From Stx2-converting phage Stx2a 981509: 25,488 bases of DNA. The first letter of the stretch is position 1; every line of letters begins with the position of its first letter. The position numbers were made by a program. Positions 9,001 to 12,000 of this stretch are shown in pieces. The stretch lies in sequence record LC487996. One strand, given 5' to 3'.

Positions 9001-12000
9001 GCTTTTTGTTTCAGGAATCCAAGAGCTTTCACTGCTTCGGCCTGTGTCAGTTCTGACGATGCGCGAATGTCGCGGCGAAATATCTGGGAACAGAGCGGCA
9101 ATAAGTCGTCATCCCATGTTTTATCCAGGGCGATCAGCAGAGTGTTAATCTCCTGCATGGTTTCATCGTTAACCGGAGTGATGTCGCGTTCTGGCTGACG
9201 TTCTGCAGTGTATGCAGTATTTTCGACAATGCGCTCGGCTTCATCATTGTCATAGATACCAGCAAATCCGAAGGCCAGACGGGCACACTGAATCATGGCT
9301 TTATGCCGTAACATCCGTTTGGGATGCGACTGCCACGGCCCGGTGATTTCTCTGCCTTCGCGGGTTTTGAATGGTTCGCGGCGGCATTCATCCATCCATT
9401 CGGTAACGCAGATCGGATGATTACGGTCCTTGCGGTAAATCCGGCATGTACAGGATTCATTGTCCTGCTCAAAGTCCATGCCATCAAACTGCTGGTTTTC
9501 ATTGATGATACGGGACCAGCCATCAACGCCCACCACCGGAACGATGCCGTTCTGCTTGTCAGGGAAGGCGTAAATTTCTTTCGTCCACGGATTAAGGCCG
9601 TACTGGTTGGCGACGATCAACAATGCGATGAACTGCGCATCGCTGGCATCGCCTTTAAATGCCGTCTGGCGAAGAGTGGTGATCAGTTCCTGTGGGTCGA
9701 CAGAATCCATGCCGACACGTTCAGCCAGCTTCCCAGCCAGCGTTGCGAGTGCTGTACTCATCCGTTTTATACCTCTGAATCAATATCAACCTGATGGTGA
9801 GCAATGGTTTCAACCATGTACCGGATGTGTTCTGCCATGCGCTCCTGAAACTCAACATCGTCATCAAACGCACGGGTAATGGCTTTTTTGCTGGCCCCGT
9901 GGCGTTGCAAATGATCGATGCATAGCGATTCAAACAGGTGCTGGGGCAGGCCTTTTTCCATGTCGTCTGCCAGTTCTGCCTCTTTCTCTTCACGGGCGAT
10001 CTGCTGGTAGTGACGCGCCCAGCTCTGAGCCTCAAGACGATCCTGAATGTAATAAGCGTTCATGGCTGAACTCCTGAAAATGGCTGTGAAAATATCGCCC
10101 GCGAAATGCCAGGCTGATTAGGAAAACAGGAAATGGGGTTAGTGAATGCTTTTGCTTGATCTCAGTTTCAGCATTAATATCCATTTTTTATAAGCGTCGA
10201 CAGCTTCACGAAACATCTTTTCATCGCCAATAAAAGTGGCGATAGTGAATTTAGTCTGGATAGCCATAAGTGTTTGATCCATTCTTTGGGACTCCTGGCT
10301 GATTAGGTATGTCGATAAGGCGTTTCCATCCGTCACGTAATTTACGGGTGATTCGTTCAAGTAAAGATTCGGAAGGGCAGCCAGCAACAGGCCACCCTGC
10401 AATGGCATATTGCATGGTGTGCTCCTTATTTATACATAACGAAAAACGCCTCGAGTGAAGCGTTATTGGTATGCGGTAAAGCCGCACTCAGGCGGCCTTG
10501 ATAGTCATATCATCTGAATCAAATATTCCTGATGTATCGATATCGGTAATTCTTATTCCTTCGCTACCATCCATTGAAGGCCATCCTTCCTGACCATTTC
10601 CATCATTCCAGTCGAACTCACACACAACACCATATGCATTTAAGTCGCTTGAAATTGCTATAAGCAGAGCATGTTGCGCCAGCATGATTAATACAGCATT
10701 TAATACAGAGCCGTGTTTATTGAGTCGGTATTCAGAGTCTGACCAGAAATTATTAATCTGGTGAAGTTTTTCCTCTGTCATTACGTCATGGTCGATTTCA
10801 ATTTCTATTGATGCTTTCCAGTCGTAATCAATGATGTATTTTTTGATGTTTGACATCTGTTCATATCCTCACAGATAAAAAATCGCCCTCACATTGGAGG
10901 GCAAAGAAGATTTCCAATAATCAGAACAAGTCGGCTCCTGTTTAGTTACGAGCGACATTGCTCCGTGTATTCACTCGTTGGAATGAATACACAGTGCTTA
11001 TTCGTACTAATAAAATACCCAATTTTCTGTTTCTTGGTTGTGTCCAAAGTTATATTCAATATCTGGTGTTGATGTATCAATATTCTTCATACCATCAACA
11101 AGAGTTGATACAACAGCCAAATCTTGTTTGATTCTCATTAAATGGTATTTCTTCCGGCGCAATAAACTTTCAATGGCAAGTTTCTTCGTTGGGAATGCAA
11201 AAGATCTTTCTGCATTTTTTGCTACTTTCTTAATTGCATATCTATTTCTCCTTTGTTTCCATTCCTGTAACCACTGATTTGGTGCTGGTTTAAAATTAAC
11301 AATCCAATGCGCAGGAACCAACCATGCATAATGCTCTGTCTGATGAAAAGCTATATATTGAAGTGCGAATATTTTTATCCCATCTTCTTCAACTGTCGCC
11401 TGGAATCTCCAGAAAACAGGCATTCCATCATGTTCAGTTTCTGATTCAGGAAAAGGTACGCTCCATGATTTTGTCATATCTCACCTCAAATAAGTGGTTT
11501 GCTGCCTAATTTCATTTTCTGGCGACCAACACAAGTCATCTTGCTGTCAGTTGTTTGGATTTACGGTAGCCTGCCGCGTAAAGAGCTACATTTGGAAGAC
11601 AAGTTGAGCCTTCATATTTTCTGGTCAACGTTGTCAGTGTTATTACTTCTGCTCTCATTGCTGGTTTGCGTTTGCATTGTAAGACCACTCGTGATGGGGT
11701 TGGCCTGTGTAGTTTGTCGGAGCTAATCGCCTCCTGACTTTGCAGGTTTGCGCGACGAGCTCTACGGCGAGAAGCTGCGGTGCCTTTAAATTCTGTTTTT
11801 CTGGACATAGATTCCTCCCGAATAAACTTTGGCGATGCAATCTCGAAGCTCCTCCTGAGACGGTTGCTTCGGCATTGCATCCCACAGCTTATGTGGTTGG
11901 GTGATCTGGCTTTTCAGCCACGTAGTCGAGAGTCGACGTTGTTTAAAGAGCCTGCCAGTCTGTTCCATTTGGCTTCCAGCGTCCTGCTGATGGTTAAATA

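Follow-up and report, generated by a model that had tools for sequence, protein, structure and literature searches.

A conserved basic protein of a phage-specific family, encoded in the accessory slot next to N of an Stx2-converting phage

The ea10–N interval and its gene

Stx2-converting phage Stx2a 981509 (sequence record LC487996) carries, between the lambda backbone gene ea10 and an N-type antitermination gene, an open reading frame (ORF) for a 156-residue protein, here called ORF156. The stretch analysed (the window) is 25,488 nucleotides long and as a whole represents a 933W/Stx2a-type lambdoid early region with a different immunity module. ORF156 is a real gene, held under purifying selection, and its product is a soluble, basic, phage-specific protein with a predicted fold that is unmatched among solved structures. 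Sequence comparisons indicate that it occupies a variable cargo slot as a gene-sized mobile module and is most likely transcribed together with N. What the protein does can be stated only tentatively: the favoured reading, with a probability of about 0.4, is an early accessory factor for counter-defence or DNA handling that would act through a conserved basic surface. The features of the locus are as follows.

11007–11477, minus strand: ORF156, ATG start, TAG stop, 156 amino acids, about 18 kDa
11481–11487, minus strand: ribosome-binding site GAGGTGA, 3 nt ahead of the ATG, read straight from the sequence
11478–11535, minus strand: 58-nt spacer from the N stop codon to the ORF156 start
11536–11880, minus strand: N-type antitermination gene directly upstream of ORF156 (Pfam N_peptide, E 2.3e-32)
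10488–10856, minus strand: ea10, the downstream neighbour (Pfam DUF2528, E 2e-47), a lambda backbone gene with a guanine-plus-cytosine (GC) fraction of 0.385
10963–10994, minus strand: perfect 14-bp RNA hairpin just 3′ of the ORF156 stop codon (z = -5.25; 0 of 200 shuffles fold as well)
10873–10904, minus strand: intrinsic-terminator-like hairpin with a T tract, in conserved backbone outside the cassette (lambda record 33931–33952, 99%)

The corresponding stretch of lambda, from ea10 to N, contains ral, orf28 and sieB, the last on the opposite strand. A sequence-only reading of the window had placed a 156-residue ORF at this ral/sieB position, behind a strong ribosome-binding site, and the ORF, the Pfam matches of its two neighbours and the GAGGTGA motif all agree with that description.

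That the gene is real is clear from codon-level comparison with homologues at 55–85% identity, where the ratio of nonsynonymous to synonymous substitution rates (dN/dS) was 0.17–0.24 wherever it was computable. In these comparisons dN ranged from 0.2 to 0.7 and dS was saturated, and 40 columns were invariant over 20 homologues. The opposite possibility, a non-functional or spurious ORF of AT-rich intergenic DNA, has the unusual composition of the gene in its favour and nothing further. Against it stand a dN/dS far under 1, the occurrence of 87 cluster representatives over diverse phages, a structural model of high confidence (below) and the strong ribosome-binding site, so that it can be considered effectively refuted.

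Identity and distribution

The interval singled out by the sequence-only reading (641 bp) is 100% identical to DNA of phage 933W, where the gene is L0079/ST933Wp19 and is annotated "hypothetical protein", and to that of many Stx1 and Stx2 phages. At the protein level, the identity is 99.4% to gp45 of HK97 and complete to vb_24B_11c of phi24B, and ORF156 is a full-length member of PHROG 1636 (E 2.7e-112, residues 1–156 of a 156-position profile; function class "unknown"). With 99.4–100% identity, these are the same gene, with no difference from ORF156, and in these phages too it lies directly after N and ahead of a tL2-type terminator. A megablast search found it in 598 of 5426 complete E. coli genomes, at up to four copies per genome and always annotated as hypothetical, and a locus search with the close family returned identical E. 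coli prophage copies only.

By this identity, ORF156 can be equated with a hypothetical already catalogued as HK97 gp45, 933W L0079 and PHROG 1636, and the idea that it is novel cargo was rejected, given that it equals these genes and is common in E. coli prophages. The literature searched under every derivable identifier, together with the supplements of an accessory-gene screen, contained no mention of it. The claim that the protein belongs to no recognisable family held for Pfam, NCBIfam and PADLOC and failed against the full-length PHROG 1636 match and the near-identical HK97 gp45. What the present analysis adds is the link to a wider phage family, a confident model lacking a solved counterpart, the boundaries of the module and the likely co-transcription with N.

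A gene-sized module in a variable slot

The borders of the module were traced by homology to other lambdoid phages. Homology to lambda (99%) spans ea10 and the intergenic hairpins, extending from 10001 to 10997, 10 bp past the ORF156 stop codon. Homology to HK97 (98%) is confined to 10872–11601, taking in ORF156 with the linker on one side and the final 66 nt of N on the other; these 66 nt (11536–11601) travel together with ORF156 in HK97-type mosaics. Breakpoints were then sampled from 80 IMG/VR loci that encode an identical ORF156 protein. On the upstream side they lay at 11601 in 28 loci, at about 11538, the N stop codon, in 32, and at 11493–11505 in 15; on the downstream side, at about 11007, the ORF156 stop codon, in nine and at about 10880 in 29. 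At least two N alleles accompany ORF156 in the sample, some loci also contain a Nun-like gene or further small genes, and neither ral nor sieB lies alongside it in any of the 80.

The linker at 10872–10997 is common to many lambdoid phages, some of which have no ea10, and the space between N and this linker is filled differently from phage to phage. In mEp235 it holds a Nun-like gene and a gene for a 207-residue protein, in mEpX2 three genes for small unknown proteins, and in a Salmonella P22-like phage sieB together with a gene for a 121-residue protein. Because the breakpoints fall at gene edges and the occupants differ among lambdoid phages, the interval from N to the tL2 linker can be regarded as a genuine variable cargo slot, with ORF156 as a gene-sized, apparently mobile module within it. 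The description of the ral/sieB position as an accessory hotspot is thereby borne out, with N and the lambda-type tL2 linker as its bounds.

One IMG/VR prophage (L033, 3993–6014) carries a lambda-type N and a Nun-like gene, then an identical ORF156, then genes for unknown proteins of 98 and 67 residues, and then the tL2 linker. Since extra genes flank ORF156 in some E. coli prophages such as this one, the slot can hold several cargo genes at once. The perfect hairpin at 10963–10994 has no U tract, lies exactly where lambda homology ends (10997) and is part of the conserved linker; it may be a recombination boundary or an RNA-processing site.

The module resembles the morons of lambdoid phages, which are likewise discrete, gene-sized, AT-rich insertions with sharp mosaic boundaries. 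A moron in the sense of Juhala and Hendrix is, however, defined by its private promoter, whereas ORF156 has no promoter-like site upstream and the terminator that follows it (10904–10873) lies within the shared backbone that is 99% homologous to lambda. Its assignment as a moron with its own promoter and terminator was accordingly rejected.

Base composition

ORF156 has a GC fraction of 0.357, and of 0.268 at third codon positions, against 0.464 for the whole window; for comparison, N has 0.478, gam 0.502 and bet 0.52. At 0.370, the 641-bp interval belongs to the 2.2% of windows of this length with the lowest GC, and only 18659–19129 is more AT-rich (0.331). The claim of a markedly AT-rich islet thus stood as far as composition goes and failed as to its borders, in that the trough extends over ea10 as well. 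The lambda cargo of the same slot is nearly as AT-rich (ral 0.413, sieB 0.386, whole slot 0.397). Moreover, homologues of ORF156 lie 4–10 GC points under the rest of their own locus in eight of nine cases, a comparison that took in Pectobacterium, Brenneria, Rosenbergiella, one Salmonella phage and metagenomic phages.

Low GC is therefore characteristic of this segment of the pL operon and, mildly, of the ORF156 family in other hosts. Because it is typical of both, AT-richness is weak evidence for recent foreign origin.

Expression

On the minus strand, no promoter-like site was found at 11478–11997, and the nearest one (12026–11998) lies upstream of N. No terminator-like hairpin occurs between N and ORF156, where the RNA of the spacer is no more stably folded than shuffled sequence (z = +0.68), and, downstream of N, an intrinsic terminator is first predicted at 10904–10873, past ORF156. 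The annotations of HK97 and 933W agree in placing a terminator after the gene and none before it, that of HK97 being a putative one. Since the 58-nt spacer contains neither a promoter nor an intrinsic terminator, ORF156 is most likely co-transcribed with N from pL, in the earliest leftward transcript of early lytic growth, and it should be silent in a repressed lysogen.

This arrangement bears on the suggestion that the gene might serve superinfection exclusion or, more generally, be a prophage defence gene expressed in the lysogen, as are sieB and nun. The slot does hold sieB or nun in other phages: SieB of lambda and P22 and Nun of the HK022 type are encoded in the same variable interval next to N, and AT-richness is typical of lysogenic-conversion cargo. 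SieB, a membrane protein, has its own promoter and is encoded on the opposite strand, and Nun is an arginine-rich-motif RNA-binding terminator that is expressed in lysogens. ORF156, on the other hand, has no promoter-like site upstream, follows N after only 58 nt and is co-oriented with pL. The protein and its relatives, described next, speak against the suggestion as well.

The protein, its family and its predicted fold

ORF156 has an isoelectric point (pI) of 9.07, with 21 lysine and arginine residues against 18 aspartate and glutamate residues, and the median pI of its family is 8.9. The charge is unevenly laid out, with a net +12 over residues 57–130 and acidic stretches at residues 1–56 and 131–156. 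Hydropathy analysis found no membrane segment; the maximum Kyte-Doolittle value over 19 residues was 0.56, against 1.73 for lambda SieB. Together with an hhalign probability of 0.7%, this led to rejection of ORF156 as a SieB homologue.

Searches of Pfam, NCBIfam, PADLOC and PDB sequences with the single protein and with a 73-member family gave only noise, even at E-values up to 10. The best match in PADLOC-DB, Cas1_II (E 0.018, 45 residues), was the only one and was likewise noise, and nothing homologous to an established defence or anti-defence protein turned up. When 1.84 billion cluster representatives were searched with a profile, 87 relatives were recovered, mostly of 130–155 residues. 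Over 73 of them, a hairpin is followed by the conserved motif ET...K..K...SRFAF.TK..A...L..RK..QL.HLKRDL...F. No domain fusion of the family was found in 5.8 billion proteins, and every match was named "hypothetical".

Structure prediction depended on these relatives. With an alignment of close homologues only, AlphaFold gave a poor model, with a predicted local distance difference test score (pLDDT) of 60. With the 73-sequence alignment that included distant relatives, the pLDDT rose to 95.5 and the predicted template modelling score (pTM) was 0.82. The model consists of three long strands (residues 19–30, 33–46 and 50–55) and one short strand (83–86), two short helices and one helix of 33 residues (98–130), and its C-terminal tail is ordered. 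No solved structure in the PDB matched the predicted fold, and no significant structural or profile similarity was found to Tudor/SH3-like or AP2-like nucleic-acid-binding folds.

A fold search of BFVD gave 14 matches at E <= 1e-3, all of them uncharacterised proteins, from phages of Erwinia, Achromobacter, Delftia, Rhizobium, Sinorhizobium, Tenacibaculum and Cellulophaga. Because these fold relatives occur in unrelated phages, some presumably virulent, a role in the lytic cycle is suggested. The remote-homology search and structure prediction that the sequence-only reading had proposed as a check produced uncharacterised relatives and a fold unmatched in the PDB.

Genomic context of the relatives

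In every relative locus examined, the homologue is co-oriented with the early operon, in varied surroundings. It may lie after N and ahead of kilR, gam and recT, immediately before xis-int (Pectobacterium, Brenneria and one metagenomic prophage), or upstream of recombination genes (Rosenbergiella). In a Vibrio phage it lies directly after a cro-like helix-turn-helix gene and before rha, and in Salmonella phage NX263 it is the first gene of its operon, followed by a ParB-like gene. Elsewhere it is found among genes for DNA polymerase A, a dCTP deaminase, an exonuclease and an SNF2 helicase in a virulent-looking phage contig, and in Pantoea phage LIET2 and a Klebsiella phage it belongs to a long run of small early genes. 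An apparently conserved 269-residue neighbour was discarded as a coincidence of length, for the proteins concerned (AntA, ParB-like and unknown proteins) are mutually unrelated.

The occurrence of relatives in virulent-looking phage contigs adds to the case against an exclusion function, as do the missing membrane segment and the empty PADLOC result, and such a function is unlikely. The earlier interpretation as a whole thus finds partial support, for a real hotspot with a real module, whereas exclusion is improbable and an anti-defence function is no more than a candidate.

DNA methyltransferase genes lie within four genes of a distant relative, in the same early operon, in five loci (L017, L018, L020, L025 and L108), a raw count given without a background rate, and RdgC is present in two of these. 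Inhibitors of RecBCD also share operons with the gene, namely Gam here, Abc2 in HK97 and a T7 gp5.9-like domain in L108, again without a background rate.

The frequent nearness of methyltransferases lends some interest to the possibility that ORF156 replaces ral as a restriction-alleviation factor, modulating either type I restriction-modification or a methyltransferase of the phage or the host. Lambda Ral occupies the same pL-operon slot in the same orientation, is expressed from pL, is likewise basic (pI 8.78) and is mutually exclusive with ORF156 in the sampled loci (co-occurrence in 0 of 80). However, Ral has 66 residues against 156, a 2.4-fold difference in size, and shows no detectable sequence relation; hhalign gave the 73-sequence profile a probability of 0.1% against lambda Ral, and ORF156 as a sequence homologue of Ral was rejected on this ground. 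The position in the slot has itself no predictive value for function, because other occupants, Nun and SieB, are functionally unrelated. A Ral-like activity is consequently improbable, about as much so as exclusion.

Possible role

The same contexts could be explained by a more ordinary role, in which ORF156 is a housekeeping-type DNA- or RNA-binding accessory of replication, recombination or early transcription control with no part in immunity. Its conserved central surface is basic, its relatives lie among DNA polymerase, exonuclease and helicase genes in virulent-looking contigs and adjoin genes for RecT/Erf/RdgC, ParB-like proteins and Rha, and its sequence is strongly conserved. Taken alone this role is somewhat doubtful, and it is nearly as likely as the guess of counter-defence or DNA handling.

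The reading of ORF156 as an early accessory factor for counter-defence or DNA handling can be laid out as a sequence of steps. The protein would be produced, together with N, from pL as soon as infection or induction begins, and would be absent in a repressed lysogen. It might then act in the infected cell through its conserved positive centre, formed by the beta-hairpin and the long helix (residues ~83–120), and this basic surface could bind nucleic acid or an acidic host factor. As a result, incoming and replicating phage DNA would be protected or promoted. Such a function would be of the same general class as those of the operon neighbours Gam, Kil and CIII and of the slot alternative Ral. 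The timing of expression is deduced from the layout of the operon, and the binding partner and the counter-defence outcome are likewise inferred.

Several observations weigh against this reading. The strong conservation of the sequence is atypical of fast-evolving anti-defence genes, and the nearby methyltransferases and nuclease inhibitors may be no more than what an early left operon usually contains. ORF156 is absent from genuine conjugative plasmids and their leading regions, the records found being only prophage-like or misassembled. With a pI of 9.07, an acidic DNA mimic of the Ocr or ArdA type is ruled out. Finally, Rho-dependent termination between N and ORF156 is possible.

A more specific proposal can also be considered. 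ORF156 could conceivably be the enterobacterial member of a widespread phage-only family and an immediate-early counter-defence effector, made with N before the other delayed-early genes and, in Stx phages and HK97, neutralising nuclease-based or other host immunity or shielding the phage DNA. Stated this fully, the proposal is rather unlikely, a degree more so than the housekeeping role.

About 11% of complete E. coli genomes carry the gene, as do most 933W-type Shiga-toxin phages and the genetically tractable model phage HK97, and it is apparently among the first to be transcribed after infection or induction. If a role in counter-defence or DNA handling were true, it would represent a new family for that phage repertoire, and hundreds of prophage genes would be annotated at once. 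As it stands, it is an ordinary "conserved hypothetical" within a well-known mosaic hotspot.

Other features of the window

An Rfam scan of 9800–13200 found the lambda cIII thermoregulator RNA only (RF01804; 10370–10428, minus strand; 88.5 bits, E 1.6e-21). Between the cI side and pL, a 173-residue ORF (12537–13058, minus strand) belongs to PHROG 2602, of unknown function, and has no Pfam or PADLOC match. Its position is that of rexAB in lambda and of stk in 933W, and it is a candidate for a cargo gene expressed in the lysogen. Downstream of it is a terminator-like hairpin (12235–12214), within a stretch (12120–12235) that is 87.5% identical to lambda DNA.

The AT-rich trough at 18659–19129 coincides in part with a gene for a 203-residue HNH_3 plus AP2 protein (18701–19312, plus strand) that resembles a homing endonuclease and lies directly after the replicative helicase gene; a relationship of ORF156 to the AP2 domain was considered and rejected. 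The helicase itself (16229–18622, plus strand) is DnaB-like and 797 residues long, and matches to LAGLIDADG_3 and Hom_end at residues ~393–454, between the DnaB N- and C-terminal domains, suggest an intein within it.
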